Translations under genes and position numbers: made by a program | Origin: Anaerolineae bacterium | GTDB taxonomy: Bacteria; Chloroflexota; Anaerolineae; B4-G1; DUEL01 | Assembly (NCBI GenBank): GCA_041082215.1 | Contig: JBDOIF010000056.1 | Location: 1-38,940 of the forward strand | Reading direction: 5' to 3' | DNA length: 38,940 nt | The notes under the pieces: model-generated | Told to the model about the DNA's origin: nothing | The model's input: the letters and a program-made list of their open reading frames with translations, nothing else | Databases searched by the model: none | In this document: positions 10,341 through 38,940 of the stretch, piece after piece | How positions within the stretch are numbered: position 1 is the first letter of the stretch | Layout: every line of letters starts with the position of its first letter

Positions 10341-10372
10341 CCGTCTATCGTCCGCCGCTCATCGCATATCGC

Positions 10373-11470: not shown

Positions 11471-11480
11471 CTGCGCCTCC

Positions 11481-12500: not shown

Positions 12501-12527
12501 TGTTTCCTCCTCCTCTCGTCGGCTTTC

Positions 12528-14935: not shown

Positions 14936-15852
14936 TCAGATGTTCAGAAGCTCGAAGATCTCGTCACGTATCGCTTCATCTGCCAGAAGGTCTTCTATTG
15001 TGAACCAATGAGTCACGAGATGCCGATTGATCTCCAAGTCATTTCTCGCCCTCGGTGTCATAGACACACCCTGGATGATCAGCACCGTTATAGCGGCAGG
15101 ATTCTCCTCTCTAACACGGCTGAGGCTCTTAAGTGCTGCTCCCAGCCGCTCCAGAACTCCTGCAGGGTCTATCCCTCCTTAATGACATCACCTTTGTAGA
15201 AGGCAATATCCGGCTCGTCAGCAAAGATGACCGCACGGCCGTCGGAGAGTTTCATTTGTGTGCCGTCTTCTGCTTCTTGCACCGACCATTCCCTTTCGCG
15301 CAACCTCCGCTGGATCAATCCCTTCACAACCGTTTCGACTCTTGTGCCTTTGATATTCTGCCAGGAACCCTGGGCCTGAGTGCCAGCAGCCATACCTCGC
15401 CACAGGTCGAACTCCCGGGCATCAATCTGTTCATCGAACTCAATCAACCTGCTGATGATCTGGTTCAGATGGCGAGAAAGCTCGCAGGCAATGGCACGAT
15501 CTGGGATAACTGAAGCAGTCTCATACTGACTTACGGCGAGTCCTACTCGTGCCATGGATTTCTGTGAGGCCATGGAGAGCATACGGTAATAAGCAGTTGC
15601 GCCTGGAACGCTTGTCAGGACCTCCGGATGAGCAAAGACAGTGACCGGCTTGATCCCCCGATGGATCACCTTCTTCCAGGCACTTTCGGAGACGCCGAGG
15701 TCGGTCAAATCCCACTCCAGAGATTCCCCCTTAAAAGCATCCAGAGCAGAGGCCACAGAGAGCATTCTCCACTCGTGGAGTTTTTGATGAAAGAACTCGC
15801 TCTTGGTTAGCTGATCCAGGAACCAGACCTGACGGTATACATCCGACTTCAC
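14936..15852 (-). pseudogene. XcyI-family type II restriction endonuclease, frameshifted
   Basis: GTG start overlaps the MTase stop, with a GGAGG RBS. The first frame ends ...EPDIAFYKGDVIKEG* at 15169. A shifted frame continues GGIDPAGVLERLGAALKSLSRVREENPAAITVLIIQGVSMT...IFELLNI* to 14936. GSWQNIKG and xGGIDPAG resemble the XcyI family (recall). Confidence 0.75.
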
Positions 15853-23603: not shown

Positions 23604-23674
23604 ACTCAATCTCCTATCCACCTGACGCGACCGGGCCGAATCTCATGAATGTTCCCGGGCGGTTCTAGCCGTAC

Positions 23675-23724
23675 GCAGTGCAGGCTGTCAGCCTGCCAGA
23701 AACAGGCCTGGCGGCCTGCGCTAC
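23675..23724. repeat. Inverted REP-like doublet
   Basis: GCAGTGCAGGCTGTCAGCCTGC faces the reverse complement of GTAGCGCAGGCCGCCAGGCCTG. Confidence 0.65.
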
Positions 23725-23753
23725 TTGGGCAGGTCATCGCCCTATTTCACACC

Positions 23754-23789
23754 ATTCGTGTCATTCGCCGGACTCGTGGAACTCGTGAT
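23754..23789. repeat. Four 9-bp-period A(T/C)TCG units
   Basis: ATTCGTGTC ATTCGCCGG ACTCGTGGA ACTCGTGAT, same family as 6996-7083. Confidence 0.75.
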
Positions 23790-23815
23790 CTACAAAACTG
23801 CCGGGCGATATACCA

Positions 23816-25357: not shown

Positions 25358-25625
25358 CTCCCGCCTCCCCCAACTTTCTCCGCACGTACCGGGCCAGGCG
25401 GGCAACGGAGTCAAAGTTATCGGGCAGAATCTCCTCATCCTCAACGGTGATGCCGAAGGTCTCCTCCACAAACATCACCAGCTCCAACACGCCGGTGGAA
25501 TCAACGATGCCCTCTTCAAGGAAAGAGGCCTCATCCCGCAGTTGGGACCCGTCGTCGGTGAAAAGGAAGTTCTCCAGGACATAGCGACGGATCAGCATCT
25601 CTACGGACACTGCTTCGACAATCAT
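25341..25625 (-). CDS. Acyl/peptidyl carrier protein
   Basis: Acidic 94-aa protein with the phosphopantetheine site GIVDSTGVLELV and PDNFDS. GGAGG RBS. Confidence 0.93.
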   Translation of the reverse strand: MIVEAVSVEMLIRRYVLENFLFTDDGSQLRDEASFLEEGIVDSTGVLELVMFVEETFGITVEDEEILPDNFDSVARLARYVRRKLGEAGDGAGE

Positions 25626-25860
25626 TGTCCTCTTCCTCCCTAGATTTTACTGCATGGCATTTTACAGCGGGGGGGTTGGTTTAAGGTGACCAGATTCCTA
25701 GAAAAGGGCTAGAACTCCCGAACGCTTGGAGGGCAGAGGAAGAATCTCTAATTATTTTCCAATTTCTTCGTTACCGAACCCTGACGAAGCAAACCTATAT
25801 TATAGAGAAGCCTGACCGGGCTTTGCACGGCTTATTTATAGGGAGGTGGGAGGTGAAACT

Positions 25861-26931
25861 ATGATGCTCATAGCCCGAGCGCCGGTGCGCATTAGCTTTG
25901 GGGGAGGGGGGACCGACCTGCCAGCTTACTATGAACGGCACGGCGGGATGGTGGTGAGCGCGACGATCAACCACTACGTCTACACCATCCTCACCCCCAA
26001 CGGTGCGGACGGCGTGCAGATCATCTCGGCCGACTACCGGGCACTGAGCGAGGGGCCGACCTGCGAGGACCTGATCTGGGACGGCGACCTGAGCCTTCCG
26101 AAGGCGGTCACCTACTATTTCAACGTCGGCAAAGGGGTGCGGATCTTCCTTGCTTCGGAGGTTCCACCCGGGACCGGCCTGGGTTCCTCCGGGAGCGTGG
26201 CCGTGGCGATGATCAAGGCGCTGGCCTTCTGGTGTGGCCTGGACCTGGGTCCCGGGGAGGTGGCGGAGCTGGCCTGCTACATCGAGATCGAGAAGCTGGG
26301 GATGCCCGTCGGCAAGCAGGACCAGTACGCGGCGGCCTACGGAGGGCTGAACTGCATCCGCTTTTCGCGGGACAGGGTGGAGGTGGAGCCTCTGATGCTC
26401 CCCAAAGAACTCATCGAGAAACTGCAGGCAGGGTTGATGCTGTTCTTCACCGGCAAGTCGCGCCAGTCCTCCACCATCCTGCGCCGACAGAGCCGGGCCA
26501 GTGAGCTAGGAGACCCGAAGACGGTCCAGCGGCTGGATCTCATCAAACAGTTGGGCGAGGAGATACGGTCCGCGCTTCTGGCGGGAGACCTGGAGGCCTT
26601 CGGAGAGTTGCTGCATCGCTCCTGGCAACAGAAACGGGGAGTGGTGGAAGGCATATCCACCCCCTTCCTCGATGAGTGCTACCAGGTGGCCCGGGAGCGG
26701 GGGGCGCTGGGCGGAAAGGTGACGGGGGCAGGGGGTGGAGGGTTCCTCCTCCTGTATTGCCCGCCGGAACGGCAGGGGGCAGTGGCGGAAGGGCTGCAAA
26801 GGATGGGCCTCCAGCAGCGGGAGTTCTCCTTCGACTTCGACGGCGTTCAGGTGATGCAGGGGGTGCCGTGGTCGCATCCCCAGGTTGCCCCCCGGCTGCC
26901 CCTCGTAACCGACATCGTGGAAAAGGCGTAA
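25861..26931 (+). CDS. hddA: GHMP kinase, D-glycero-alpha-D-manno-heptose-7-phosphate kinase-like
   Basis: Motifs RAPVRISFGGGGTD, PPGTGLGSSGS, VGKQDQY..AYGG, GALGGKVTGAGGGGF. GGAGGTG RBS. Confidence 0.85.
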   Translation: MMLIARAPVRISFGGGGTDLPAYYERHGGMVVSATINHYVYTILTPNGADGVQIISADYRALSEGPTCEDLIWDGDLSLPKAVTYYFNVGKGVRIFLASEVPPGTGLGSSGSVAVAMIKALAFWCGLDLGPGEVAELACYIEIEKLGMPVGKQDQYAAAYGGLNCIRFSRDRVEVEPLMLPKELIEKLQAGLMLFFTGKSRQSSTILRRQSRASELGDPKTVQRLDLIKQLGEEIRSALLAGDLEAFGELLHRSWQQKRGVVEGISTPFLDECYQVARERGALGGKVTGAGGGGFLLLYCPPERQGAVAEGLQRMGLQQREFSFDFDGVQVMQGVPWSHPQVAPRLPLVTDIVEKA

Positions 26932-27003
26932 AGGTCGTCCAGCGAGGCCGGAGGCCTTCCCCCTTCCCCTACCTCCCGGCTTCTCCCACCTATGGAGCTA
27001 TGT

Positions 27004-27624
27004 ATGCGCCGAGCCGTTTTTATAGACCGTGATGGGGTGATCTGTCGCAACAGGAACGACCATGTGAAGAGCTGGGAGGAGTTCGTCTTCCTCCCCGGTG
27101 CGCTGAAGGCGATGGCCCGGCTGGCTTCCCTGGACCTGCCCATTATTGTGATCACGAATCAGGCTATTATCAACCGGCGGATGGTCTCCGCCGAGATGGT
27201 GGATGCCATCCACGCGCGGATGGTGGGGGCGATTGAGGCGGCCGGCGGTCGGGTGGACCGGGTGATGTACTGCCCGCACCGGCCTGACGAGCACTGCACC
27301 TGCCGTAAACCCCAGCCGGGCCTGCTGCTGATGGCAGCGGAAGAGCTGGAGCTGGACCTTTCCTGCTCTTATCTGATCGGAGACGCGGAGTCGGATATGA
27401 AGGCAGGCCGTGCGGTGGGGTGTCGCCGCTATCTGGTGCTCACCGGCCGGGGACGACGCCAGCTTCTGCAATGCTGGCTTCACGGCGAACGGGGTTTCAC
27501 CGTGGTGCCCAACCTGAGCGCTGCGACGACCGCCATCCTCCGACGGGAACACAGCGATGGCACGTCTTTTCGCCTATCCCTTTTCGGTGGTAATGGAAAA
27601 AAGAAATCCGGTAGCTGCCTGTGA
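27004..27624 (+). CDS. gmhB: D-glycero-D-manno-heptose-1,7-bisphosphate phosphatase (HAD IIIA)
   Basis: Motifs FIDRDGVI, ITNQ, YCPH..CTCRKPQPG, IGDAESD and VLTGRG. Confidence 0.9.
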   Translation: MRRAVFIDRDGVICRNRNDHVKSWEEFVFLPGALKAMARLASLDLPIIVITNQAIINRRMVSAEMVDAIHARMVGAIEAAGGRVDRVMYCPHRPDEHCTCRKPQPGLLLMAAEELELDLSCSYLIGDAESDMKAGRAVGCRRYLVLTGRGRRQLLQCWLHGERGFTVVPNLSAATTAILRREHSDGTSFRLSLFGGNGKKKSGSCL

Positions 27625-28447
27625 GGCCGATCAGGGCCTGGGCACGACCTACGAGCGATTCGCCATATATCGGTGGCTGGAGGAGCTGGTAGGTCGCTTC
27701 CCGGTCCGTTTCGTGCTGGAGGGGCCAGGGGACGGGGTGGCGGGCATTCCCGGCATCCACAGCCTCCCCCTGGCCCTGCGCGGCTGCCTGGTCACGGTCG
27801 TCCTGGAGAACCCGGCGGAGATCGCCCTGGCCCAACGGGCCTGGGCCGCCCAGGGTTGCCTGGCCCAGGTGGACCTCATCCGCGTGGACGAACTTCCCCT
27901 TTTCTCCCCTCCCCATCGCTTCGACCTGGTCTGGAATTTCAACCGCCTTCCCTTTACCGACCCCGCCGCTCTGATCGGAGAGATGGCCCGTCTCTCCCGC
28001 CGGTACGTCGCCCTGGTCGTGCCCAACCGGCGCAACTACGGCTTCCCTGCCCGGCGGCTTTACCACCGGCGCACCCGCCTCCCCTGGCCCTACGGCGATC
28101 GGAGGGTTATGCATCCAGAAGTGGTGCGAAGGCTCCTGGAAAGGGCCGGCCTTCGTCTCCTGGAGGTGCGCTGGCTGGACGTTGCCCCCTGGCCGGACAT
28201 CCTCGACCCCCGGGCCTGGCTCGCGGCTATGGTCCCCGCAGCCCGGCGGCTGCTGAAGGGCAACGGCCGGGGCGGATACCGCTGGGGGCCGGAGGAGCTT
28301 CCCTACTTCGACCCCATCACCCACGCCGACCTCCACCGGCGGATGCATCGGTTGGGCTGGCTGGAACGGACCTGCCCGGCGTGGATGCAGGTCCCCTTCG
28401 CCCACCATTTCGCGGTGATCGCGGAGCTTGGGGATGCGCGCGATTGA
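27593..28447 (+). CDS. Class I SAM-dependent methyltransferase-like protein
   Basis: Atypical motif I VLEGPGDGVAG, FDLVWNFN, and DP..LIGEMARLSRRYV..VPN. Alternative start at 27557. Confidence 0.65.
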   Translation: MEKRNPVAACEADQGLGTTYERFAIYRWLEELVGRFPVRFVLEGPGDGVAGIPGIHSLPLALRGCLVTVVLENPAEIALAQRAWAAQGCLAQVDLIRVDELPLFSPPHRFDLVWNFNRLPFTDPAALIGEMARLSRRYVALVVPNRRNYGFPARRLYHRRTRLPWPYGDRRVMHPEVVRRLLERAGLRLLEVRWLDVAPWPDILDPRAWLAAMVPAARRLLKGNGRGGYRWGPEELPYFDPITHADLHRRMHRLGWLERTCPAWMQVPFAHHFAVIAELGDARD

Positions 28448-29528
28448 ACTCCTCTGGCGGCTTCCGGGCTACTGGGCCTCCCGACGGTGGGGATGGCCCC
28501 GGCCCCTGCCGATGAACCTCACCCTCAGCCTCACCTACCGCTGCAACTCCCGCTGCGCCACCTGCAACGTCTGGCGGAAGGAGGCGGAGGAGCTGACGGT
28601 GGAGGAATGGGACCGGGTGTTCCGCTCCCTGGGCCACGCGCCCTACTGGATCACCGTCAGCGGGGGAGAGCCGCTGCTGCGGGAAGACGCGGTCGAGGTC
28701 ATCCGCCGTGCCTGCGAGCTTTGCCGGCCCGCCATCCTGAACATCCCCACCAACGGCCTCCTGCCGGAGCGGATCGCCCGCTCCGTCGCCCAGGTGACGG
28801 CCGCCTGTCCCCACACCCGGATCGTCGTCAACCTCTCACTGGATGGCTGGGGGGCAGACCACGATCACATCCGTGGGGTTCCGGGCAACTTCGAGCGGGC
28901 AATGGAGACCTACCGGCGGCTGCGGGCAATAAAGGCCTCCAATCTGAGTCTAGGGGTCCACACCGTCGTCTCCCGCCTGAACGCCCCGGCCGTGCCGGCC
29001 CTCGCCGCCCGCATCCGGCAGGAGCTGGCCCCCGACTCCTATATCACCGAGATCGCCGAAGAACGGGTGGAGCTGGGGACGGTCGGCGCGGAGATCACAC
29101 CCGGCCCCGCCGCATACGGCGAGGCCATTGAGCAGGTGCTGGCCCTTCAGTCCATTTATCCCCCCTCCGGCCTGGGCCGGGTGACGGCGGCCTTCCGCCG
29201 TCGGTACTACCGGCTGGTCCAGCGGTGGCTTCGGGAGCGCCGACAGGTGATCCCATGCTATGCTGGCTGGGCCTCCGCCCAGGTCTCGCCGGAAGGGGAC
29301 GTCTGGTTCTGCTGCACCCGTGCGGCCCCGGTCGGCAACCTCCGTCGGGCCGGCTACGATTTCCGCCGCATCTGGTGGGGGGAAAAGGCCCGGGAGCTGC
29401 GGGAGGAGGTCCGGGCGGGCCGCTGTGATTGCCCCCTGGCCAACGCTGCCTACACCAACCTGCTCCTGCATCCCCCTTCGCTGATCGGTGTGGCGTGGGA
29501 GCTGGTGCGGAAGGATGGGCATGTATGA
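28434..29528 (+). CDS. Radical SAM protein with SPASM/Twitch-type C-terminus
   Basis: Motifs CNSRCATC, SGGEPLLR, SLDG..HD.IRG; C-terminal PCYAG..GDVWFCC..GNL..CDCP. Confidence 0.92.
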   Translation: MRAIELLWRLPGYWASRRWGWPRPLPMNLTLSLTYRCNSRCATCNVWRKEAEELTVEEWDRVFRSLGHAPYWITVSGGEPLLREDAVEVIRRACELCRPAILNIPTNGLLPERIARSVAQVTAACPHTRIVVNLSLDGWGADHDHIRGVPGNFERAMETYRRLRAIKASNLSLGVHTVVSRLNAPAVPALAARIRQELAPDSYITEIAEERVELGTVGAEITPGPAAYGEAIEQVLALQSIYPPSGLGRVTAAFRRRYYRLVQRWLRERRQVIPCYAGWASAQVSPEGDVWFCCTRAAPVGNLRRAGYDFRRIWWGEKARELREEVRAGRCDCPLANAAYTNLLLHPPSLIGVAWELVRKDGHV

Positions 29529-30514
29529 TGGTGCTGGTCACCGGCGCCACGGGCTTCATCGGCGGCCACCTGGTCCGCCACCTGATCGAGCAGGGCCATA
29601 CCGTCCGGGCGCTGGTCCGTAACCCGGCCCCCCAGCTCGAGCAGGAGGGAGTGGAGACGGTCATCGGCGACCTGACGCGGCCCGAGACGCTCGCGGAGGC
29701 CGTCAGGGGGGCCGAAGCGATTTTCCATCTGGCCGCCCTTCGGGACCGGTGGGGAGTGCCGCTGGCAACCTACCGGACGGTCAATACCGTAGGGACCTGT
29801 CACCTGCTGGCCGCGGCCATGCAGGCCGAGGTGGGCCGGTTCGTCTACTGCAGCTCGGTAGGGGTGGCCCGCTACCCTGGCCGGGTTGACGCCAACGAGA
29901 CGTTGCCCTATGCCCAACCGACCAGCCAGGTCGGTTACCACCGCACGAAGATGGAAGCGGAACGGCTGGTAGTGGTGGCTGCACGGGCCGGAGCGGTGCC
30001 CGCCGTGGTGGTCCGCCCGGTCATCTCCTACGGGCCAGGTGACCAGACCGGGATGGTGGCCCAACTGCTGGTCCGGTTGGCGCGGGGACGGTTCCTGCCG
30101 GTGGGGGATGGACGCAACCGCGTGGACCTGGTCTATGTGGAGGACCTGGTGGAGGGGATGAGGCTGGCATGGGAGCGAGGGAGCGTGGGCCGGGTCTACA
30201 TCCTTTCCGGCCCTCGCCCGGTGACGATGCGGGAGGTCGTGCTGGCCGCGTGTGCGGCCCTGGGGAAGTCTCCCCCGCCCTTCCACGTGCCGGAGGGGCT
30301 GGCCCGATCCCTTGCAGGGTGGGCCGAGCGGGTATGGGGTGCGCTGGGATGGCGTCCGCCGATCACCCGCGACGCCGTGGCCACGCTGACAGTAGACCGG
30401 GGCTTCAGCCACGCCCGGGCGCGGGCGGAGCTGGGCTATAACCCCTGCGTGACACTGGAAGAGGGGTTCAGGCGAACGGTGGCCTGGCTTCGGGAGATGG
30501 GCCAGGTCCGCTGA
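29525..30514 (+). CDS. NAD-dependent epimerase/dehydratase (extended SDR)
   Basis: Motifs LVTGATGFIGG, FHLAA, CSS, YxxxK (YHRTK) and YGPGD. ATGA overlap with the upstream gene. Confidence 0.92.
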   Translation: MMVLVTGATGFIGGHLVRHLIEQGHTVRALVRNPAPQLEQEGVETVIGDLTRPETLAEAVRGAEAIFHLAALRDRWGVPLATYRTVNTVGTCHLLAAAMQAEVGRFVYCSSVGVARYPGRVDANETLPYAQPTSQVGYHRTKMEAERLVVVAARAGAVPAVVVRPVISYGPGDQTGMVAQLLVRLARGRFLPVGDGRNRVDLVYVEDLVEGMRLAWERGSVGRVYILSGPRPVTMREVVLAACAALGKSPPPFHVPEGLARSLAGWAERVWGALGWRPPITRDAVATLTVDRGFSHARARAELGYNPCVTLEEGFRRTVAWLREMGQVR

Positions 30515-30527
30515 GGAGGGAGCAGGG

Positions 30528-31640
30528 ATGTCTGGCGTGAGTATCTGGCGACGAAGTAAAGAGCGGTATCGGCTTCTCGGGACCGAGTGTCCCCGATGCG
30601 GAAGCCGTTTTGTGGCCCCCCGTCTGGTCTGCCCAACCTGCCGTGAGGAGGTGGAATCCCTCTCCAGCGAGGTCTTCCCGCGAATAGCCACCCCCGCTAC
30701 TGGCGAGCGGATTGCCGCCTCGGTCATCATCCCCTCCTACAACGCCGCTGCCACCATCCGGCAGACCCTTTCCTCCCTGCAAGCTCAGGATTGCCCTGAG
30801 CCATACGAGGTGATCGTCGTTGACAGCTCCGACGACGGGACCGACCGGATCATTGCCGGGGAGTTTCCCTGGGTGCGCCTCCTGCATCTGCTCCAGCGCA
30901 CCGACCCCGGCACTGCCCGCAACCTGGGGATCGCCCGCTCGCAGGGGGAGGTGATCGCCTGCCTGGACGCCGATTGCGTCGCTCCGACAGACTGGTTGGG
31001 GCGGATGCTGGAAGCGCAACGGGCTGGCCATCTGGTGGTGGGCGGGGCGGTGGAGAACGGCAATCCTGCCAGCCTGGTGGCCCGGGCGGGATATATGGGA
31101 GAATTCCGGGAGTTTCTGCCGGTGGGCAGCCCGCGGATGGTGGGCCATGTGCCTACGTGCAACATCTCTTACCACCGCTCCATCTTTGCCCGGTTCGGCG
31201 GCTTCCCCACCCGGTTTTACCCTCAGGAGGACCTCCTGTTCCACTGGCGACTGGCGCACCACGGCGTCGCTATCTGGTTCGACCCCTCCATACGGATCCG
31301 CCACTTCCACCGTGCCTCATTCCCTTCCTACCTGATCCACCAGCACCGGATCGGGCAGATCACCGCCCGCGTCCTCCGGCTGACAGGAGAGGAGGGGGCC
31401 TTCCTGGCCCGCTCGCCTGTGCTGGCACTCCTGGCCTCGCCGCTTCTGCCCCTCTACAAATGGGCGCGGACGCTGGGGGTCTTTCTCAACCATGCCCCCT
31501 CCGTCCTTCGCCGCTCCCTGCTGGCCTCCCTCCTCCTCCTGCCTGGCCTCTACGCCTGGGTCGCAGGGTTCGTCGCCGGGGCCTGGGGGCCGCCGCTTCA
31601 CTGGGTAGAAGGGGAGGGGTTGACGTGGCAACCAGCCTGA
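30528..31640 (+). CDS. Family 2 glycosyltransferase with an N-terminal DUF35-type zinc ribbon
   Basis: WRRSKERYRLLGTECPRCGSRFVAPRLVCPTC precedes SVIIPSYN, VIVVDSSDD, ARNLG, LDADC and QEDL. C-terminal TMs. GAGGAGG RBS before ATG 30528. Confidence 0.85.
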   Translation: MSGVSIWRRSKERYRLLGTECPRCGSRFVAPRLVCPTCREEVESLSSEVFPRIATPATGERIAASVIIPSYNAAATIRQTLSSLQAQDCPEPYEVIVVDSSDDGTDRIIAGEFPWVRLLHLLQRTDPGTARNLGIARSQGEVIACLDADCVAPTDWLGRMLEAQRAGHLVVGGAVENGNPASLVARAGYMGEFREFLPVGSPRMVGHVPTCNISYHRSIFARFGGFPTRFYPQEDLLFHWRLAHHGVAIWFDPSIRIRHFHRASFPSYLIHQHRIGQITARVLRLTGEEGAFLARSPVLALLASPLLPLYKWARTLGVFLNHAPSVLRRSLLASLLLLPGLYAWVAGFVAGAWGPPLHWVEGEGLTWQPA

Positions 31641-32665
31641 ACTGCGCTCTCCATGAGGTGGGCCTGAGGCTGGAGACGGAGGGGAAGGAGTTCCTCTCCT
31701 TCGCCCGCCAGTACCTGCGCCCCCTACAGGCCAGGGATGGAATTCATCCAACCATCGAGGTGAGGCTCGAATGGGGCCGACGGTTACCTCCGACCGACCT
31801 GGAGCCGCTGGGAAGGCGGGTATGGATCGGCGATGGACGGCTGCGGCTGAGCGAGATCCGACCGGTGCCCGGCCTCGAGCTGGAAATGGAATGGGGACAG
31901 GCCAGCCTGCAAATTCATGCCGCCTACCGCTGGCCGACCCGCCGGGCGCGCTGGCTGGCCCGCTTTTCCTGGGCTGCGCGGGCCCGCCTCTACGTCCCGC
32001 TGCTCTACTACCTGGTCTACTTCCCGCTGGGATGGTGGATGGAGCGGGAGCGGGGATGGAGCCTCATCCATGCTGCCGGGCTGGCAGATGGGGAGGAGGG
32101 GGTCGTGCTGACCGGCCTGCCAGGGTGCGGGAAGTCCACCTTTGTCTGGGCCGCATTGACCCTCCCCGGGTGGCGGGTGCTCTCCGATAACCTCCTCTTC
32201 ACCGACGGCCACCTCGTGTGGGCCTGTCCGGAGCCGCTCCACGTGGACAGGCAGGCCCAGGAGCTCTCCGGCGGGTCCCCGGAAGGAGTCCGGTCGGCTG
32301 GTCGGACCTTTTCCCATCACCGGGAAGATTTCGAGCCGGAGCCTCACCGGCAGGCCGAGATCACACGGCCCCGGAAGTTGATCTTCCTGCAGCGAGGACG
32401 AGAGGGCAGGATCAGGCGCCTGGAAGAGAGCGATGCCCTCTGCCGGCTATGGGTCGGCGACCTGCACGCCCAGGAGTGGCTGGCCTATCAGGAATGCGCC
32501 ACTGCTGTCCATCACCTGATCCCGGAGGTCGGTAACCCGCTCTGGCGGTGGGTAAACCTTCAGGGACTGGCAACGCTTCCCTCCTATGAGGTCACTCTGG
32601 GCAAAGGGGACGATCTGGTGGAAGCGGTACGGCAGGCACTGGAAAGGACGGAAAGGGATGGTTGA
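31625..32665 (+). CDS. HprK-related P-loop kinase-like protein
   Basis: LIHAAG...LTGLPGCGKST...GWRVLSDN matches the HPr kinase C-terminal pattern (H, Walker A, xDD-like). GTG start after GGGGAGGGG. Confidence 0.7.
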   Translation: MATSLNCALHEVGLRLETEGKEFLSFARQYLRPLQARDGIHPTIEVRLEWGRRLPPTDLEPLGRRVWIGDGRLRLSEIRPVPGLELEMEWGQASLQIHAAYRWPTRRARWLARFSWAARARLYVPLLYYLVYFPLGWWMERERGWSLIHAAGLADGEEGVVLTGLPGCGKSTFVWAALTLPGWRVLSDNLLFTDGHLVWACPEPLHVDRQAQELSGGSPEGVRSAGRTFSHHREDFEPEPHRQAEITRPRKLIFLQRGREGRIRRLEESDALCRLWVGDLHAQEWLAYQECATAVHHLIPEVGNPLWRWVNLQGLATLPSYEVTLGKGDDLVEAVRQALERTERDG

Positions 32666-34100
32666 ACCCCTGGAGCGGAGCCGACGCCCGGTGGTCATCT
32701 CACCGCCGGACCTCCCGCCCCCGCCGGAGGCGCTGGAGGCGGTGGAGGAGCTGGCCCGCGCCCCCTGGCTGGCCCTCCCCCCCGTAGCCCTGCCGGACCT
32801 GCACTGGAAGCCCGATCTGGAGAGTCCCTCCAGCCTGGCGACAGCCACGGAGGATGTGCTGGTGCTGGGGCTCACCAGCCCCTCCCCCCACTGCGGAATG
32901 GGGCTGGCCCTGACCGATCTGGAGGCGGATTTCGCCACTCCCCGACGGCTGGACCGGTTTTTCGGCTACCTGGCGGCCCGGCTGGACCCCCAACGGAGGG
33001 AACCGGCGCTGGACGAAACGGCCCTCGATACCGTCCTGCTCGGTGGGCTTTCCGCCTGGAGGGAGCGGGAAGAGCGGGTGGTGGTGATGGAGACGATGGA
33101 AGGGGAAGGGAACGCCTTCTCCCCCGACGAGGCCGCCGCCGAGGGAGCGGCCATCCTGAGCGCGATTCCCCAATGGCTGCGGCCGCTGGCCCGCCAGGAG
33201 TTCGGACTGGTGGGCCGGGGGAACCACTTCCTGGAGGTCCAGATGGTGGAGGAGGTGCTGGACCCGGGGAAGGCGGCGGAGTGGGGGGTGGAGAGCGGGC
33301 AGGTGGTACTGATGGTCCACGCCGACTCCGGCCATCTGGGGGCAGTTGTGGGTCGGCTTTTTGCCCACAGGCGGAAGAACTCCCGGCGGGGGAGGTGGAT
33401 GGAGTGGCGGGTCAAGCTCCCCTACCATCTACGGCAGGTCTCTTCACCGCAGGCCCTTTGGGAGCGGATGCGCCTCTTCTGGCCGGGTCGCTGGGTCCCC
33501 ATCCGGGCCGACTCGGTGGCGGGGCGGCTCTGCCGCTGGGCGCTGGGGGCGGCAGCCAATTACGCCGCTGCCGGTCGGCTGGCGCTTTGGGGGATGGTGG
33601 CAGAGGCGCTGGCTGCCGCCGGGGGCACGGGACGGGTGCGGCTGCTGTGGGACGCGCCCCACAACGGCATCTGGCGGGAGGAGATCGGAGGCCGCCAAAT
33701 ATGGGTGCACCGCCACAACGCTGCCCGCGTCCGTCCGGGCGATCCGGCGTTGCTCCCCGGCTGCGAGCGGGCCTCCTCGCTGCTGTGTGTGGGAGAAGTG
33801 GGGGCAGCCGCCACGCTGCATTCGGCCAGCCACGGGGCAGGAAAGGCCATCGCACGGTTGGGACGGCCGCTGACATCAGGGACGGAAAGAACCTGGATCT
33901 ACGGATACGACGGGGCCTCCCCTCAACCTGTCCCCCATCTGAGCGACGCAGGTCTCTGGGCCGTGGCCGGCACGCTGGCAGCCCACGCCATCGTCCGCCC
34001 GGTCGCCCGGCTGCGGCCCGTGGCGACCCTTAAGGACCGGGGTATGGATGGAAACCACAGAGACGCAGAGGACACGGAGAAATATCGAGAGGATCTTTAG
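32658..34100 (+). CDS. Divergent RtcB-family protein
   Basis: Ordered RtcB motifs: LPDLH, HCGM, GRGNHFLEVQ, MVHADS, DAPHN, WVHRHNA, LPG, SASHGAG and RLRPVATLK. Confidence 0.85.
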   Translation: MVEPLERSRRPVVISPPDLPPPPEALEAVEELARAPWLALPPVALPDLHWKPDLESPSSLATATEDVLVLGLTSPSPHCGMGLALTDLEADFATPRRLDRFFGYLAARLDPQRREPALDETALDTVLLGGLSAWREREERVVVMETMEGEGNAFSPDEAAAEGAAILSAIPQWLRPLARQEFGLVGRGNHFLEVQMVEEVLDPGKAAEWGVESGQVVLMVHADSGHLGAVVGRLFAHRRKNSRRGRWMEWRVKLPYHLRQVSSPQALWERMRLFWPGRWVPIRADSVAGRLCRWALGAAANYAAAGRLALWGMVAEALAAAGGTGRVRLLWDAPHNGIWREEIGGRQIWVHRHNAARVRPGDPALLPGCERASSLLCVGEVGAAATLHSASHGAGKAIARLGRPLTSGTERTWIYGYDGASPQPVPHLSDAGLWAVAGTLAAHAIVRPVARLRPVATLKDRGMDGNHRDAEDTEKYREDL

Positions 34101-34128
34101 AGCTCTGTGACATCTGTGCCTCCATGTG
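34054..34128. repeat. Inverted CACAGAG/CTCTGTG-type periodic element
   Basis: ACCACAGAGACGCAGAGGACACGGAG...CTCTGTGACATCTGTGCCTCCATGTG, spanning the RtcB-like stop codon. Confidence 0.7.
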
Positions 34129-34150
34129 AAAATCTGGAGAGTGAGGGGAG

Positions 34151-35470
34151 ATGCGGTTTTTCCGAAACGTCCTGGGCACGTTCCTCACCGAAGTGCTGAC
34201 CGTGCTCATCAACCTGCTGATCGGAATCGTGAGCGCACGTGTGCTGGGCCCGGACCGGAGGGGTGTGCTGACGCTGGTGATGACGCTGCCAGTCACCCTT
34301 GTCGCCTTCACCGACCTGGGGATCTCGCAGGCCAATGTCTACTTCATCGCTCGCAAAAACCGCCCGGCTGCCGTCGTCGCCACCAATGCGGTCTATCTGG
34401 CCGCCGGAACCGGGTTGCTGGTGGGCACAGGGCTGTGGCTGGCCCGTGGGCTGGCCCTGACCACCTTTCTGCGCGGGCTGCCCCCCCACTACCTCGGCCT
34501 CATCCTGGTCCTTTCGCCCGTGATGCTGTTATACACCTACTGGATGGCGATCCCGCGCGCCTTTCAGCGCTTTGGCCTGTTCAACCTGCTCCGGCTGATG
34601 ATGCCGGCTGCGATTCTGATCTCGATGGTGCTGGCCCTGCTGGTCTTCCGGGGAGGGATCGGATGGGCCACCGTCGCCTATGGCGGGGGGATCCTGGGCG
34701 CTACCGGACTGAGCCTGTTCGTCGTGGGCCGCTTCGCCCGCCCACGCCTCCGTCCTGACTGGACGCTTGTGCGGGATTCGCTCATCTACGGCCTCAAGTC
34801 CTACTCCCAGAACCTGATCGGCCACCTGACCTACCGGCTGGACATCTACCTGGTGGCCTTCTTCCTCACTCCACGGGACGTGGCCTTCTACGGGATTGCC
34901 ACCTCTGTCGCGGAGATGATCTGGTACATCCCCAACTCGGTGGGACTGGTCCTTTTCCCCAAACTCTCCGCCGCCGAGGAGTCCCAGGTCCACCAGGTCA
35001 CAGCCGAGGTCTGCCGACACACGCTGCTGGTCACACCTCTGACCGGCGTGGCCGTCCTGGCGGCTGGCGTTGTGGGGATCCCGCTGCTGTACGGTCCGGA
35101 GTACGCTCCCGCTGTGCGGCCGCTGCTGCTCCTGGTCCCCGGCGCGACGATGATGACCCTCTACAAGGTGCTATCCCGCAACTTTTCCAGCCGCGACCGA
35201 CAACAGGTCTCGATCCTGGCGGCAGTGGTGGGCCTGGTGCTGAACGTCGCCCTGGACTGGCTCTTTATCCCCCTTTGGGGGATCGTCGGCGCCGCGCTGG
35301 CCTCCGGCCTGGCCTACAGCGCGACAGGCCTGGTGCTCCTGTGGGCCTTCCATCGGGAATCGGGCCTTTCGCTGGAGGATGCCCTGCGTTTCCGGCGCAG
35401 CGACCTGGGCCGCTACAGGGACCTGATGCAGACGCTGCGGGCACGTCTGCTTGCAAAGGCAGAAAGATGA
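34151..35470 (+). CDS. Wzx-like oligosaccharide flippase (MOP superfamily)
   Basis: About 12 TM segments. Motifs ARVLGPDRRG, DLGI, YRLDIYLV, LFPKLS, LYGPEY and LFIPLWGIVGAALAS. Confidence 0.9.
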   Translation: MRFFRNVLGTFLTEVLTVLINLLIGIVSARVLGPDRRGVLTLVMTLPVTLVAFTDLGISQANVYFIARKNRPAAVVATNAVYLAAGTGLLVGTGLWLARGLALTTFLRGLPPHYLGLILVLSPVMLLYTYWMAIPRAFQRFGLFNLLRLMMPAAILISMVLALLVFRGGIGWATVAYGGGILGATGLSLFVVGRFARPRLRPDWTLVRDSLIYGLKSYSQNLIGHLTYRLDIYLVAFFLTPRDVAFYGIATSVAEMIWYIPNSVGLVLFPKLSAAEESQVHQVTAEVCRHTLLVTPLTGVAVLAAGVVGIPLLYGPEYAPAVRPLLLLVPGATMMTLYKVLSRNFSSRDRQQVSILAAVVGLVLNVALDWLFIPLWGIVGAALASGLAYSATGLVLLWAFHRESGLSLEDALRFRRSDLGRYRDLMQTLRARLLAKAER

Positions 35471-35477
35471 GGTCGTG

Positions 35478-36548
35478 ATGAAGCTTCTGAACTTCCTCTC
35501 CTGGCGTCACTGGGGCCTGCTGCGCTACAATTCTATCTTCCAGAATGTCGCCCTCTTCTTTTACGTGGCGCTGGCCCGACGCTGGTTCGGCCTGGACTTT
35601 CTGCGGGACGTGGGCCTCTTTCTGCTCCTCAGCCTGGCAGGGACCGCTTACGGCTACCTGGTCAACGACTGGGCGGACCTGGACCTGGACCGGCGGGCGG
35701 GGAAGCGCAATGTCTTTTCCGGAATGGGTCGGGCGAAAGGGGTGTCGGTGCTGGCCGTGGTACTGGCGCTGGTGGTGGCGCTGGGGCTGCCTTTTGTCCA
35801 CAGGCCCGGCTTCCTGCCCCTCTGGGGGGCCTGGTGGCTGCTGGCGACCTTCTACTCCCTGCCGCCGGTGCGGCTGAAGGAGCGGGGCGGGCTGGGGCTG
35901 GCGGCCACGATCCTCGCCCAGCAGCCGCTGCCGGCAGCGATGGCCTTTGCCGCCCTGGGCCATCTTTTCACCCTGGGAGCGCTGGCTTTCATCACCTACA
36001 TCGCCCTGCGGGGCATCTGCTCCGACGTGGGCCACCAGATGCGGGATCGGGAGAAGGATGCAGTGGCTGGGGCACGGACCTTCGCCGTTCGCCACGGCCA
36101 TCGGGCTATCGCCCGCATCTACGGCATCAGCCTGGAGCTGGAAACGCTGCTTCTGGGGGCCGTCCTGGCGGTGCTGCTGGCCGACCTGCCCCTGGTCCCT
36201 ATCGGGAAATGGTCCATCTCCCCGGTCTGGCCGCTGGTGGTCGGATACCTGGCGCTCCTCCCCTTTACCCTGGGCCGCGCCTGGCTGCGGCTGGAGCGGG
36301 GCGAGTGGGTGGACCCCTACGATGAATCGCCGGAGGGTCCGCCGCGCGACCTCCTGCACCTGATCCACCACCCTTTCCCCACGGTCCTGCTTCCCCTCTA
36401 CCTGGGGGTCTGGCTGACCCTCTGCTACTGGCCCAACTTCGTCTTCGTGGTCGGGCTGGCCCTGCCGTACGGCCTGTACGACCCCCGGCGCTGGGCGGGG
36501 ACGTGGCCGGTGCGGGCGCTGCGGTCGGTTGTGAAACGAGGCCTATGA
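35478..36548 (+). CDS. UbiA-family prenyltransferase
   Basis: First Asp-rich motif NDWADLDLDRRAGK, YSLPPVRLKER, second motif HQMRDREKD..G.RT; multiple TMs. Confidence 0.85.
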   Translation: MKLLNFLSWRHWGLLRYNSIFQNVALFFYVALARRWFGLDFLRDVGLFLLLSLAGTAYGYLVNDWADLDLDRRAGKRNVFSGMGRAKGVSVLAVVLALVVALGLPFVHRPGFLPLWGAWWLLATFYSLPPVRLKERGGLGLAATILAQQPLPAAMAFAALGHLFTLGALAFITYIALRGICSDVGHQMRDREKDAVAGARTFAVRHGHRAIARIYGISLELETLLLGAVLAVLLADLPLVPIGKWSISPVWPLVVGYLALLPFTLGRAWLRLERGEWVDPYDESPEGPPRDLLHLIHHPFPTVLLPLYLGVWLTLCYWPNFVFVVGLALPYGLYDPRRWAGTWPVRALRSVVKRGL

Positions 36549-36559
36549 GGCAGGAAAGG

Positions 36560-38940
36560 ATGACAGGCGGTTTCATCTTACCTCTGGATCGGAGCGAACA
36601 GGCCCACCGCCTCGGGGCAGGAGGTAAAGGGTATGCCCTGGCCCGGCTCTCTCAGGCTGGCTTCCCCGTGCCCCCTGGCTTCATCGTCACTGCCGATGCC
36701 TACCGGGCCTTCGTCGCCGCCAACGGCCTGGAGCGGAACCTGACCGAAGCGCTCACCGGGGAAGACCCAATGGCTGCCGCCCGCGCCCAGGCGGCCTTCT
36801 GGGAAGGGGAGATGCCGCCGGAGATCGCGCAAGCTATCGGCAGGGCCTACCGGGCGATGGGAACCGGCCCGGTAGCGGTCCGCTCCTCCGCAGTGGCCGA
36901 GGATGGGAGCGTCGCCTCTTTCGCCGGGCAGCACGAGACGGTCCTGGGCGTGGTCGGTGAGGGGCCGCTTCTGGCAGCGGTGCGGCGGTGCTGGGCCTCC
37001 CTGTGGAATGAGCAGGCCCTGGCCTACCGCCACTCCCGGGGGATAGAAACGGAGCCGGCGATGGCGGTGGTGGTGCAGCGGATGGTGGACGCCGCCCAGG
37101 CCGGGGTGGCCTTCACCCTCGACCCCGCGAGTGGACGTCGGGACGTGGTTGTTGTCGAGGCGGTGGCGGGGAGCGGAGAGCGGCTGGTGGGAGGCCAGGC
37201 CGCACCGCGCCGCTACGTCGTCCGACGGGAGAAGGATTGCCGCGCCCTGGGAGATGGCCTGCTGGATGGCGTCCGGCTGGCAGCCATCGTCCGCCTGGCC
37301 CGCCGGGTGGAGGCGTGGGCGGGGAAGCCCCAGGACGTGGAGTGGGCGGTGGACCATGCCGGCCGTGTATACCTGCTCCAGGCCCGGCCGGTCACCGCCG
37401 TCGGGGGGACTCCGCAGGCCGCCACCCGCTGGACCCGCGATAATGTGGGGGAGGTCGCACCCGACCCCATCACCCCTCTGAGCTGGTCGATGCTGGAGCC
37501 GATGACCAACGGGGCCTTCCGGGGAGTCCTCCGCCGCCTGGGGATGGGCCAGCTCTCCACCACTTTCTTCAGCCGCTTCTACGGACGGGTCTATCTCAAC
37601 GGGACCCTCTTCCAGAGGGTGATGGGTCGCTTCTACATTTCACAGGCTGGCTGGCGAGATCTGCCTCACCTGGCGCTGACGGGTCTGAGGGCGCTGTGGC
37701 TTTTGTGCCGTCTGCCTGCGGAGGGCGAGAGGGCCATCGCCGCGGTCCTGGAGCGTCGCCTCGACGAAGGCCCATCACTGGCCATCAGCCAATTGGACAA
37801 CTGGCGCCGTCTGGGCGCCGAAGTGATGGAGGTCCACCTGGCGGTGACGGTGATGGCCGAGTTGCTCTACCAGGCCCTGGACAAGCTGCTGGCCCGTTGG
37901 AGTGATGGGACAGCCACCGCTGCCGCTCTGACGGCGGGGCTGACGGGGGTCCGGAGCGCCGAGGTGGGGCAGGCGCTGGCGGCCCTGGCGCGGGAGATCC
38001 GCAAGGACAGGGCGCTACAGGAGCAGTTCCTGAGGGCGGACCCCCAGGCCCTTCCGGTCCGGCTGGCAGGGACGGAAGCGGGGCGGGCGGTCTGGTCGCA
38101 GGTCGAGTCGTTCCTGGCCCGGCACGGCCATTGTGCAGCGCAGGAGTTCGAACTGGCCGTTCCCCGCTGGCGGGATGACCCCACGCCGGTCCTGAAGGCA
38201 CTGCAGATGCAGGTGCGGGCGATGGAGGAGACGCCCACTGCCGATCCGGCGGCAGCACGCATCGCTGCCACGGCGCGAGTGGAGCGGGGTATGAACCCGC
38301 CCCTGCGCTGGCTCTTCCGCTTTCTATTGCGTCGGGCGCAGGGCTTCACCATCGCCCGCGAGAACCTGAAGTATCACTTTGTCCTGGCCTATAGCCGGCT
38401 GCGGGACTTCTACCTGGAGCTGGCGGCGGAGCTGGTTGCCGCAGGGCGGCTGGAGGAGCAGAAAGACGTTTTCTTCCTGACGGCCGATGAGGTGAGGGAA
38501 CTGGTCGGTGGAGGGCTGACGCCGGGGGAAGCCCGACAGCGAATAGCCCGGCGGCGGCGGGCGTGGGAGGGGCAGCGGCGGGTCGAGCCACCGGCGGTGC
38601 TCGACTCGCTGGGCGACGGCCGCCTGCGGCCTGTCCTGCTCCCCGTCGGGCCGGAGGGCGGAAACGGGCTGTACCTTCGTGGCCTGGCCGCCAGTCCCGG
38701 CACATATACCGGCCGGGCGCGGGTGGTCCGTTCGCTGGGCGAGGGGGCCGACCTCAAGCCTGGAGAGGTCCTGGTGGCACTGGCCACCAGCCCCGGGTGG
38801 GCTCCCCTGCTGGTGGCCGCCGGGGCGCTGGTCACCGAGATCGGCGGCACGCTCTCCCACGGGGCGATCATCGCCCGGGAGTACGGCCTGCCCGCCGTCC
38901 TCAACGTCCCCGATGCAACCCGCCGCATCCGCACCGGCCA
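36560..38940 (+). CDS. PEP-utilising phosphotransferase (ATP-grasp + substrate domain + phospho-His domain; rifampin phosphotransferase-like architecture); runs off the right edge
   Basis: Manual translation: GGKGYALARL..GFPVPPGF, VAVRSSAVAED..SFAGQHET, MAVVVQRMV, PQDVEWA, LLQARPVT, WTRDNVGEV, and GGTLSHGAIIAREYGLPAV in the same frame. Alternative start at 36545. Confidence 0.9.
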   Translation, partial: MTGGFILPLDRSEQAHRLGAGGKGYALARLSQAGFPVPPGFIVTADAYRAFVAANGLERNLTEALTGEDPMAAARAQAAFWEGEMPPEIAQAIGRAYRAMGTGPVAVRSSAVAEDGSVASFAGQHETVLGVVGEGPLLAAVRRCWASLWNEQALAYRHSRGIETEPAMAVVVQRMVDAAQAGVAFTLDPASGRRDVVVVEAVAGSGERLVGGQAAPRRYVVRREKDCRALGDGLLDGVRLAAIVRLARRVEAWAGKPQDVEWAVDHAGRVYLLQARPVTAVGGTPQAATRWTRDNVGEVAPDPITPLSWSMLEPMTNGAFRGVLRRLGMGQLSTTFFSRFYGRVYLNGTLFQRVMGRFYISQAGWRDLPHLALTGLRALWLLCRLPAEGERAIAAVLERRLDEGPSLAISQLDNWRRLGAEVMEVHLAVTVMAELLYQALDKLLARWSDGTATAAALTAGLTGVRSAEVGQALAALAREIRKDRALQEQFLRADPQALPVRLAGTEAGRAVWSQVESFLARHGHCAAQEFELAVPRWRDDPTPVLKALQMQVRAMEETPTADPAAARIAATARVERGMNPPLRWLFRFLLRRAQGFTIARENLKYHFVLAYSRLRDFYLELAAELVAAGRLEEQKDVFFLTADEVRELVGGGLTPGEARQRIARRRRAWEGQRRVEPPAVLDSLGDGRLRPVLLPVGPEGGNGLYLRGLAASPGTYTGRARVVRSLGEGADLKPGEVLVALATSPGWAPLLVAAGALVTEIGGTLSHGAIIAREYGLPAVLNVPDATRRIRTG

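Follow-up and report, generated by a model that had tools for sequence, protein, structure and literature searches.

The window, that is the whole stretch of 38,940 nucleotides analysed, carries a divergent gene of the RtcB family whose product (P0001) probably acts on phosphate groups of sugars, joining or activating them, and not on RNA. The reading favoured here, with a probability of about 0.5, is that the paralog forms with the kinase encoded upstream a module that would activate a phosphomonoester with GMP and make a phosphodiester on a glycan intermediate. This explanation includes, at even odds, that the protein is a catalytically competent RtcB-type guanylyltransferase/ligase which no longer acts on RNA. 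A more tentative extension is that RtcB chemistry may have been recruited from RNA repair, with a dedicated kinase, an R-pp-G product and sealing to a hydroxyl on a glycan. To our knowledge RtcB has been described solely as a ligase of nucleic acids, and a full-text literature search found no paper that connects it with HprK-like kinases, glycosyltransferases, flippases or polysaccharides.

P0001 is an RtcB protein by sequence and fold. Its open reading frame is translated without a stop, overlaps the upstream kinase gene and precedes a flippase gene, as the original prediction had stated and as confirmed on the window sequence (Table 1). The match to the Pfam RtcB family (PF01139; 131.8 bits, E 5.2e-38) lies above the gathering cut-off of 27 bits and spans residues 30–400, corresponding to model positions 3–357 of 426. 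The protein also matches Thermus thermophilus TTHA1785 (E 3.1e-19) and P. horikoshii RtcB (PhoRtcB; E 4.8e-17) in phmmer. The AF2 model, whose input alignment contained 22 clade sequences, has a mean pLDDT of 91.3 and a pTM of 0.91, the last 21 residues being a low-confidence tail. All 16 PDB matches retrieved with this model by Foldseek at E <= 0.001 are RtcB chains, the fold being common to canonical RtcB (PH1602, TTHA1785, E. coli RtcB and human RTCB; TM 0.64–0.73). The paralog is nevertheless distant from canonical members, with 22–24% identity to TTHA1785 and PhoRtcB in the Foldseek alignments, 27% identity to the canonical RtcB of its own genome, and scores below the cut-offs of the NCBIfam RtcB equivalogs NF007153 (85.1 bits versus 407) and TIGR03073 (47.9 versus 271.8).

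Table 1. Genes of the cluster that includes the RtcB-family gene and their coordinates in the window
Feature	Coordinates	Strand	Evidence and remarks
AsnB-type amidotransferase	21603–23621	-	Divergent pair with acyl-AMP ligase (21603–25471)
Acyl-AMP ligase	23816–25471	-	Divergent pair with AsnB-type amidotransferase
GHMP sugar kinase, HddA-like	25846–26931	+	NF049969, 208 bits (cut-off 600)
HAD-IIIA phosphatase, GmhB-like	26992–27624	+	NF006506, 170.7 bits (cut-off 178)
Conserved protein, no assigned family	27557–28447	+	No family at E <= 0.001 (weak Methyltransf_25, E 0.0038); conserved in related loci
Radical SAM/SPASM protein	28428–29528	+	Profile matches
SDR sugar epimerase/dehydratase-like	29429–30514	+	Epimerase, 144 bits; synteny conserved
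GT2 glycosyltransferase, N-terminal zinc ribbon	30528–31640	+	Pfam
PEPCK/HprK-fold P-loop kinase-like protein, ~346 aa	31625–32665	+	Start inferred
Divergent RtcB-family paralog (P0001), 480 aa	32658–34100	+	Pfam, phmmer, alignments, AF2/Foldseek
MOP-family (Wzx/MurJ-like) flippase	34151–35470	+	Polysacc_synt, 57 bits; MurJ, 38.5 bits
UbiA-family prenyltransferase	35451–36548	+	UbiA, 61 bits; conserved downstream
PEP-synthase/rifampicin-phosphotransferase-like protein (PPDK_N + swivel His domain)	36503–38940	+	Cut by contig end

The residues of P0001 were mapped onto PhoRtcB by a HMMER alignment and by a MAFFT alignment (A1), and the clade counts refer to 117 members of at least 430 aa each. 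Both alignments uphold the lists of the original prediction, which had named the residues from Asp65 through the C-terminal Lys as kept and D95, HADSG, HRHNA, PGCE and the missing E.P.AYK as the sites of change. The residues of P0001 shared with canonical RtcB (PhoRtcB counterparts within brackets) are D47 (Asp65), C79 (Cys98), N189/H190 (Asn202/His203), H221 (His234), H335/N336 (His329/Asn330), H392 (His404) and K459 (Lys480). In the clade, Cys98, His203, Phe204, Glu206, His234, His329, Asn330 and His404 are present in 117/117 members, Asn202 in 115, Asp65 in 114 and Lys480 in 111; judged from sequence, the nucleotidyl-transfer core is under selection. The nucleophile His404 corresponds to H392, the predicted GMP acceptor. 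The M1 ligands described for PhoRtcB, His234, His329 and Cys98 (PMC9745838), are H221, H335 and C79, each invariant, and the guanine contacts Phe204, Glu206 and Lys480 are common to both types of protein, the last two being described as such in the same source. Because catalytic residues are kept in 111–117 of the 117 members, the gene is read as a real, conserved and intact RtcB paralog that is not decaying; the lack of conservation that would have spoken for decay was not seen. The residue pattern, which recurs in all these homologs, is far beyond chance.

Unlike canonical RtcB, the paralog has Ser in place of Asp95, altered residues at the Arg238, Arg190, Gln194 and His242 positions, an HRHN motif and an extra basic segment. 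P0001 carries S76 at the Asp95 position (PSPHCG), HADSG for HTGSR, HRHNA for HRKGA, PGCE for PGSM and P-H-L-S-D for E.P.AYK. Both the Ser and the change of HRKG to HRHN are found in 117/117 clade members. In PhoRtcB Asp95 is reported as an M2 ligand whose replacement by Ala gives an inactive enzyme with no rescue by archease (PMC3973293). The M2 ligand set Asp95/Cys98/His203 is incomplete in P0001, Cys98 and His203 being kept, and since the substitution extends to every clade member the guanylylation chemistry may be altered or lost. The contacts to the 5'-OH strand are not kept, Arg238, Arg190 and Gln194 being G225, L177 and E181 in P0001. Arg238 is described as a clamp on the first two phosphodiesters of the 5'-OH strand; with its E. 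coli counterpart mutated to Ala, sealing is reported to be 200-fold slower (PMC8051266). At this position 101 of the 117 members carry Gly, 12 Glu, three Asp and one Ser, and none Arg. The Arg190 position is hydrophobic (its six commonest residues, I, L, V, M, A and W, none of them Arg, account for 116/117), the Gln194 position is mostly Glu, and the His242 position is Ala in 98/117. On these alignments the RNA acceptor site is rebuilt in the clade. The Arg238 position is followed by a clade-specific segment of 56 aa (residues 230–285 of P0001) with a net charge of +8 to +15 in 22/22 aligned members. A segment this basic could have nucleic acid, membrane or phospho-glycan as its binding partner.

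The phylogeny and neighbourhood survey proposed with the original prediction delineate a separate clade tied to HprK-like kinase, glycosyltransferase and flippase/exporter genes in several phyla. The clade (33 tree rows, SH-aLRT 99), whose members reach down to 36% identity with the query, branches apart from both canonical RtcB and a set of 14 Lachnospiraceae rows; at E <= 1e-30 it comes to 75 representative clusters. As a negative control, four RtcB loci of Lachnospiraceae that fall outside it were compared, and all four have unrelated, variable contexts; simple longest ORFs were used for them, as the custom gene caller performs poorly on low-GC loci. The proposed search for a canonical rtcB in the genome was also positive: such a gene (586.8 bits) lies on another contig, ~800 bp from an archease gene. 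Among 151 sampled genomes of the class, eight have the paralog and all eight also have a canonical-type match. The paralog locus differs from that of canonical RtcB in having no archease, RtcA, RtcR or PrfH gene and in its context of glycan synthesis. The asserted lack of RNA-repair neighbours agrees with a Pfam scan of 30 distinct window ORFs, which detected no archease, RtcA or other RNA-repair domain.

The ATG of the RtcB-family gene at position 32658 overlaps the end of the kinase gene (stop codon TGA, 32663–32665) by 8 nt. The kinase ORF overlaps the neighbouring genes on both sides, its start being chosen by third-position GC content (GC3) and homology. The kinase motifs LHAsA...GLxGxGKST, SDNL and CPEP are conserved. 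The assignment of the protein to the HprK/PEPCK-fold kinases is weak: LHAsA and GxxGxGK(S/T)T align to both HprK and ATP-PEPCK, but the scores are far under the family cut-offs (41.5 bits for HprK-related kinase A, TIGR04352, versus 200) and the amino terminus of ~140 aa has no assigned fold. The best PDB match of the kinase A4 profile is ATP-PEPCK (E 0.0036), HprK being at E 0.16, while Pfam Hpr_kinase_C gives weak matches (E 0.0028 or worse) to 10 of 24 kinase members. The HPr or PTS context of HprK is absent at this locus.

The kinase gene is adjacent or fused to the RtcB-family gene in 31 of 36 clade loci, which come from at least four named phyla (16/17 Chloroflexota-type, 8/9 Acidobacteriota-type and 7/7 KSB1/Deferribacterota-type loci). 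The remaining five comprise two loci cut by contig ends and three without the kinase (L028, L036 and L072); L036 has a Tmk-like P-loop gene in its place. The kinase-RtcB fusion P0122, 99% identical to the L005 ORF, has a Pro/Ala/Ser-rich linker of 60 aa and was the only protein found in a search for longer (fused) proteins. A further open frame of 1062 aa (G019) is on a contig that equals the contig of L005 in length (108,973 bases); it is probably a second copy of that record rather than another fusion. The flippase-RtcB fusion is represented once, by P0163 on a long branch; this protein has the same sequence as the L072 ORF and shows, by eye, Asp at the Cys98 position. Gene neighbourhood establishes linkage, not chemistry. 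Note that prediction of a complex between the RtcB paralog and the kinase gave a score of 0.00 in a run without controls, which counts neither for nor against binding.

The genes around the module are those of glycan assembly and export. A flippase homologue lies downstream in 12/12 Chloroflexota-type loci whose contig extends past the RtcB-family gene, and the GT2 gene is conserved upstream of the kinase in loci of this type. Over the clade, the neighbours include GT2/GT4, MOP flippase, ABC exporter, Wzy, phosphoglycosyltransferase, GT-C and MBOAT genes. The amidotransferase/acyl-AMP ligase pair, which is also found to the left of L011 and L018 (the ligase also in L015), probably delimits the cluster on its left side. 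PADLOC gave no defence match for the RtcB paralog, the kinase, the PEP-synthase-like protein or the conserved protein of no assigned family. Readings of the cluster as a hopanoid or mycofactocin locus were rejected, the NCBIfam scores being far below cut-offs. Contigs from the metatranscriptomic hot-spring run X8 fall on 24 of the 30 bins of positions 25500–38940, including inside the kinase gene; they are not counted as expression, as DNA is possible in such libraries and contigs do not demonstrate a transcript.

One branch of the original prediction, in which the paralog replaces HddC in the heptose route, was not borne out, the GHMP kinase and the HAD phosphatase failing to accompany the module. 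In tblastn the former matched none of 79 related loci and the latter L003 only; the module is therefore not tied to the heptose route. By this comparison the GHMP kinase is peculiar to the cluster as it occurs in this genome, and its score is far below the HddA cut-off. The search for hddC gave a point in favour of this branch: the seven NTP_transferase genes of the genome all score below the HddC cut-off (at best 69.6 versus 300). The only GmhA-like gene of the genome is on another contig. If the paralog stopped after GMP transfer, its product would be of the kind made by sugar-1-phosphate guanylyltransferases of the HddC/ManC type, namely a GDP-linked phospho-compound; the fold and mechanism of these enzymes (PF00483) are unrelated, with no covalent His-GMP intermediate, and P0001 has no match to PF00483.

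The context fits best the other branch, in which the full RtcB cycle runs on the phosphate made by the kinase. The fold, the kept and altered residues, the synteny and the fusions are observed, whereas the substrate and the use of all steps of the cycle are inferred, phosphorylated glycan intermediates being put forward as a candidate substrate class. The two-enzyme module would help to build an envelope glycan or glycolipid, working at the cytoplasmic face. The kinase would put a phosphomonoester on a sugar, a glycan intermediate or a small alcohol, and the paralog, using GTP and a metal ion, would guanylylate itself at His392. GMP would then be moved to the kinase-made phosphate, giving R-O-P-P-G, and the hydroxyl of a second sugar or alcohol would attack the activated phosphate to form the phosphodiester and release GMP. 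The flippase or an ABC exporter would carry the product outward. The LicA/LicC/LicD-type and CDP-alcohol routes, in which nucleotidyltransferase and phosphotransferase are separate enzymes, have the same end result as proposed here, a phosphodiester-linked substituent on a surface glycan from a nucleotide-activated kinase product. Here, by contrast, activation and joining would both fall to one enzyme of the RtcB type.

In Chloroflexota, Acidobacteriota, KSB1 and other groups there is thus a conserved subfamily that keeps the GMP-transfer core but not the RNA-binding residues, has its own kinase and resides in glycan operons. It points to a second use for the His-GMP/pp-G mechanism, away from RNA. 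If correct, this would define a new enzyme class in glycan biosynthesis and a previously unknown route, spread over several phyla, to phosphodiester links in surface polymers without a nucleotide-sugar or CDP-alcohol donor. It would account for some phosphodiester-linked or cyclic-phosphate substituents where LicD, Stealth and CDP-alcohol enzymes are absent, and would call for caution in labelling every PF01139 match an RNA ligase.

Alternatively the paralog could be a guanylyltransferase only, stopping after GMP transfer and leaving the R-pp-G (a GDP-sugar or GDP-alcohol) to a nearby glycosyltransferase or phosphotransferase, substitution for HddC being one form of this. Such a role is unlikely, although the first two RtcB steps yield exactly a phosphoanhydride to GMP (PMC9745838, PMC8051266), the guanine contacts are kept, the genome has no NTP_transferase at the HddC cut-off, a GT2 or GT4 gene adjoins the module in most loci, and the loss of the acceptor-strand contacts would fit an enzyme without a second substrate. 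The heptose genes, however, do not travel with the module and the GHMP kinase falls short of HddA (208 versus 600 bits). Retention of Asn202, described as holding the attacking 5'-OH in PhoRtcB (PMC8051266), also speaks against it, if weakly, since this residue is reported to contact the GTP phosphates as well (PMC9745838). The new conserved basic segment, probably beside the acceptor site, suggests that a second substrate may still be bound. The same very basic segment could be claimed for an enzyme that still acts on nucleic acids (an RNA/DNA ligase or an end-capping enzyme), its place in glycan clusters being due to co-regulation or hitch-hiking. Membership of PF01139, the kept catalytic core and the existence of Myxococcus RtcB paralogs with altered nucleic-acid activities count for this reading as well. 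It is made very unlikely by the loss of Arg238, Arg190 and Gln194, by the absence of RNA-repair genes among the 30 window ORFs scanned, by the canonical RtcB with archease elsewhere in the genome, by the gene overlaps on both sides of the kinase and by an association with glycan genes that crosses several phyla and includes the flippase fusion.

Less likely still is modification of a peptide or protein, in which a Ser/Thr residue in a RiPP precursor or a glycoprotein would be phosphorylated by the kinase and then activated for linkage by the RtcB paralog. The substrate of HprK is a protein serine, lasso peptides are phosphorylated by HprK-like kinases too, and the neighbourhoods include Radical SAM/SPASM, Asn-synthase-like and ABC-exporter genes. 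Yet the constant neighbours are glycosyltransferases and flippases of lipid-linked glycans, scores against mycofactocin and RiPP models fall far short of the cut-offs, and all-against-all clustering of neighbours revealed no conserved small precursor among ORFs of at least 60 aa, a size below which precursors would be missed. The least probable of the readings considered is a pseudoenzyme or scaffold that has lost catalysis and only binds GTP or organises the kinase and flippase. It draws on the reported inactivity of PhoRtcB D95A (PMC3973293) and on the Ser found at that position throughout the clade. Against it, the His nucleophile, the three M1 ligands, Asn202, Asn330 and Asp65 remain in place in nearly every clade member and the Ser is itself invariant, so that the site looks redesigned, not relaxed.

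The RtcB paralog of the window represents a real, conserved and uncharacterised RtcB subfamily that is coupled to its own kinase and lies in envelope-glycan gene clusters. Its 480-codon open frame matches the Pfam RtcB family over residues 30-400 (131.8 bits, cut-off 27) and, in phmmer, the RtcB proteins of known structure from T. thermophilus (E 3.1e-19) and P. horikoshii (PhoRtcB; E 4.8e-17). The scores against the NCBIfam RNA-ligase equivalogs are far under their cut-offs (85.1 bits versus 407 and 47.9 versus 271.8). The AF2 model built from 22 clade sequences (pLDDT 91.3, pTM 0.91) retrieved with Foldseek 16 PDB matches at E <= 0.001, all of them RtcB chains (TM 0.64-0.73). The paralog start codon lies within an 8-nt overlap with the end of the upstream gene and a MOP-family flippase gene follows. 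The original prediction had described this sequence correctly, including the lack of RNA-repair domains: a Pfam scan of the 30 distinct window ORFs found no archease, RtcA or similar domain. Most aligned relatives have the C-terminal Lys at the end of the protein or at most 3 residues from it, while the paralog and its 99% identical twin P0002 carry past this Lys an acidic, low-confidence tail of 21 residues.

Coordinates of the features discussed (window positions unless a locus is named)
Feature	Position	Strand	Remarks
DUF6909 protein gene	1680-3488	-	603 aa
Agmatine-deiminase/carbamoyltransferase region	7800-14369	-	
Low-GC island	15172-17174	-	53% versus about 65%
Operon block	25846 to contig end	+	
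PEPCK/HprK-fold kinase	31625-32665	+	TGA 32663-32665
RtcB paralog	32658-34100	+	ATG at 32658
Acidic tail of paralog	34038-34100	+	last 21 codons
Flippase	34151-35470	+	
PEP-synthase-like gene	36503-38940	+	incomplete, ends at contig end
Archease gene	L001 131-538		contig C130
Canonical RtcB gene	L001 1357-2808		contig C130
Flippase-RtcB fusion P0163	L072 7871-11362		996 aa

The operon block codes, in this order, for a GHMP kinase, a HAD-IIIA phosphatase, a conserved protein of unassigned family, a radical SAM/SPASM protein, an SDR epimerase-like protein, a GT2 with zinc ribbon, the PEPCK/HprK-fold kinase, the RtcB paralog, the flippase, a UbiA prenyltransferase and a PEP-synthase-like phosphotransferase. 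The last of these, similar to PEP synthase and rifampicin phosphotransferase, is a conserved feature of the right-hand end of Chloroflexota clusters and would be the third phosphotransferase of the operon. PADLOC gave no match. Contigs from one hot-spring metatranscriptome cover much of the operon, a type of contig that cannot prove transcription.

The window gene is an extra copy. The search for a canonical rtcB suggested by the original prediction identified one at 586.8 bits in this 3.5-Mb, 96% complete genome, with an archease gene ~800 bp upstream, an arrangement like the well-known pair for tRNA splicing or repair. An even sample of the class has the paralog in 8/151 genomes (clade-profile score >500 bits); a canonical-type match accompanies it in all eight, and most of the remaining genomes have the canonical type only, so the paralog is a patchy accessory gene.

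A word-indexed search with a threshold of E <= 1e-5 yielded 167 relatives, most of them from Chloroflexota MAGs and every one labelled just "RtcB", and an exhaustive search of 50%-identity representatives yielded 75 clusters at E <= 1e-30. The 79 loci fetched came from species-representative genomes. A quick maximum-likelihood tree built from 49 RtcB rows unites 33 of them in a clade with SH-aLRT 99; the canonical RtcB of the same genome and a 14-row Lachnospiraceae group fall outside it. Across the 36 loci of the clade, a count that includes RtcB frames truncated to <400 aa, tblastn with window proteins and clustering of called ORFs placed an HprK-like kinase directly upstream or fused in 31: 16/17 of Chloroflexota type (the exception, L010, is a 1.6-kb contig), 8/9 of Acidobacteriota type (L027 starts at RtcB), 7/7 of KSB1/Deferribacterota type (L033 by tblastn only) and 0/3 others (L028, L072 and L036, which has a Tmk-like P-loop gene). 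The clade is linked with this kinase and, in several phyla, with glycosyltransferase, flippase or exporter genes.

The other neighbours vary by lineage but share one theme. Chloroflexota loci display a protein of unassigned family, rSAM, SDR, GT2, kinase, RtcB, MOP flippase, a GT-C in some loci, UbiA and the PPS-like enzyme; a flippase homologue is present in 12/12 of those whose contig reaches past RtcB. The Acidobacteriota order is GT4, ABC exporter, kinase, RtcB, then GT4 or GT2 with a 2OG oxygenase, with Mur-ligase-like, AsnB-like, rSAM/SPASM and sulfatase-family genes nearby. KSB1 and relatives have two GT4, an APH-fold kinase, a two-component pair, kinase, RtcB, proteins of unassigned family and MBOAT, and the Eisenbacteria locus L072 has a phosphoglycosyltransferase, Wzy, a flippase-RtcB fusion and a CDP-alcohol phosphatidyltransferase. 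Four Lachnospiraceae loci from outside this clade (RtcB ~295 bits), taken as controls, have unrelated, variable contexts, and neither archease nor kinase was found in these four. The Lachnospiraceae group (L039-L081, mouse-gut-type) is a tight set of 499-aa RtcB proteins, ~295 bits, in variable housekeeping contexts.

Gene fusions were also found. P0122 (885 aa, 99% identical to the L005 ORF) joins a kinase homologue (41% identity to the window kinase over 302 aa, E 9e-55) to the RtcB paralog by a ~60-residue Pro/Ala/Ser-rich linker. P0201 (755 aa) carries an HprK-related kinase domain and an RtcB far closer to the canonical type (296.6 bits); the kinase-RtcB pairing is therefore not confined to the divergent clade. 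P0163, identical to the L072 ORF of an Eisenbacteria MAG, combines a MOP flippase with an RtcB-clade domain; it is a single instance on a very long branch and has, by eye, Asp at the Cys98 position (SVNDGMG versus SPxNCGM). In the kinase family the motifs LHAsA...GLxGxGK(S/T)T, SDNL and CPEP are conserved, and an alignment of 24 sequences has 16 invariant columns. Its profile best matches, among solved proteins, ATP-dependent PEPCK (E 0.0036; HprK E 0.16), and the window kinase scores 41.5 bits against TIGR04352 "HprK-related kinase A" (cut-off 200). The protein is predicted to be a P-loop kinase-like member of the PEPCK/HprK superfamily.

Residues were compared in a HMMER alignment to PhoRtcB and a MAFFT alignment with the own-genome canonical RtcB, and counted in 117 clade members of >= 430 aa; roles follow PMC9745838, PMC8051266 and PMC3973293. 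The GMP-accepting nucleophile His404, the M1 metal ligands Cys98, His234 and His329, the M2 ligand His203, Asn330 (GTP gamma-phosphate) and the guanine contacts Phe204 and Glu206 are each kept in 117/117, followed by Asn202 (GTP phosphates and 5'-OH; 115), the nucleophile's partner Asp65 (114) and the guanine contact Lys480 (111). The M2 ligand Asp95, whose D95A mutation inactivates PhoRtcB (PMC3973293), is replaced by Ser in 117/117. Arg238 of PhoRtcB holds the 5'-OH strand by its first two phosphodiesters, and its E. coli counterpart mutated to Ala seals 200-fold slower (PMC8051266); in the clade this position is never Arg (Gly 101, Glu 12, Asp 3, Ser 1). The Arg190 position is hydrophobic, most members have Glu at Gln194, Ala replaces His242 in 98/117 and HRHN stands in place of HRKG in 117/117. 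Extra sequence straight after the His234 helix is found in the clade. The 56-residue segment 230-285 is basic in 22/22 aligned members (net charge +8 to +15, mean +10.8), whereas residues 1-459 are overall neutral.

Together the kept and changed residues show a redesign, conserved in the clade, that affects the acceptor side and one metal site; the gene is not decaying. A pseudoenzyme was considered, and replacement of Asp95 by Ser could weaken guanylylation; against a decaying gene, catalytic residues are kept in 111-117 of the 117 members. Also considered were a persisting role on nucleic acid, which segment 230-285 could bind as well, action on a peptide or protein, and a role limited to GMP transfer. 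The original prediction proposed either replacement of HddC in GDP-heptose synthesis or a full RtcB cycle on a glycan phosphate. None of the genome's 7 NTP_transferase genes, all on other contigs, reaches the HddC cut-off (best 69.6 versus 300), which fits a missing HddC. However, the window GHMP kinase is only HddA-like (208, cut-off 600) and tblastn with it gave no match across the 79 loci; for the HAD phosphatase the one match was in L003, the closest relative. The kinase-RtcB module thus occurs almost everywhere without a heptose route, and HddC replacement as a general function is not supported. A full RtcB cycle acting on a phosphate made by the kinase would agree with several findings: the kinase is constantly paired or fused, the guanylyl-transfer core is kept, RNA contacts are lost, the acceptor side is rebuilt and flippases or exporters are adjacent. 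The best-supported reading is a putative non-RNA phosphate-activating or phosphate-joining role, with a probability of about 0.5. In the full-text literature outside subscription journals, no report tying RtcB to glycan genes or HprK-like kinases was found.

Elsewhere in the window, the low-GC island codes for an XcyI-like restriction endonuclease and an N6/N4 DNA methylase and is probably an acquired restriction-modification system. Agmatine-deiminase-like (PAD_porph) and carbamoyltransferase genes, flanked by Rad50/SbcC-like and SMC_N ATPase genes, have no relation to the RtcB finding. The DUF6909 protein matches this uncharacterised family end to end (733.6 bits), and its gene adjoins GT2/GT21 glycosyltransferase and PlsY-type acyltransferase genes.
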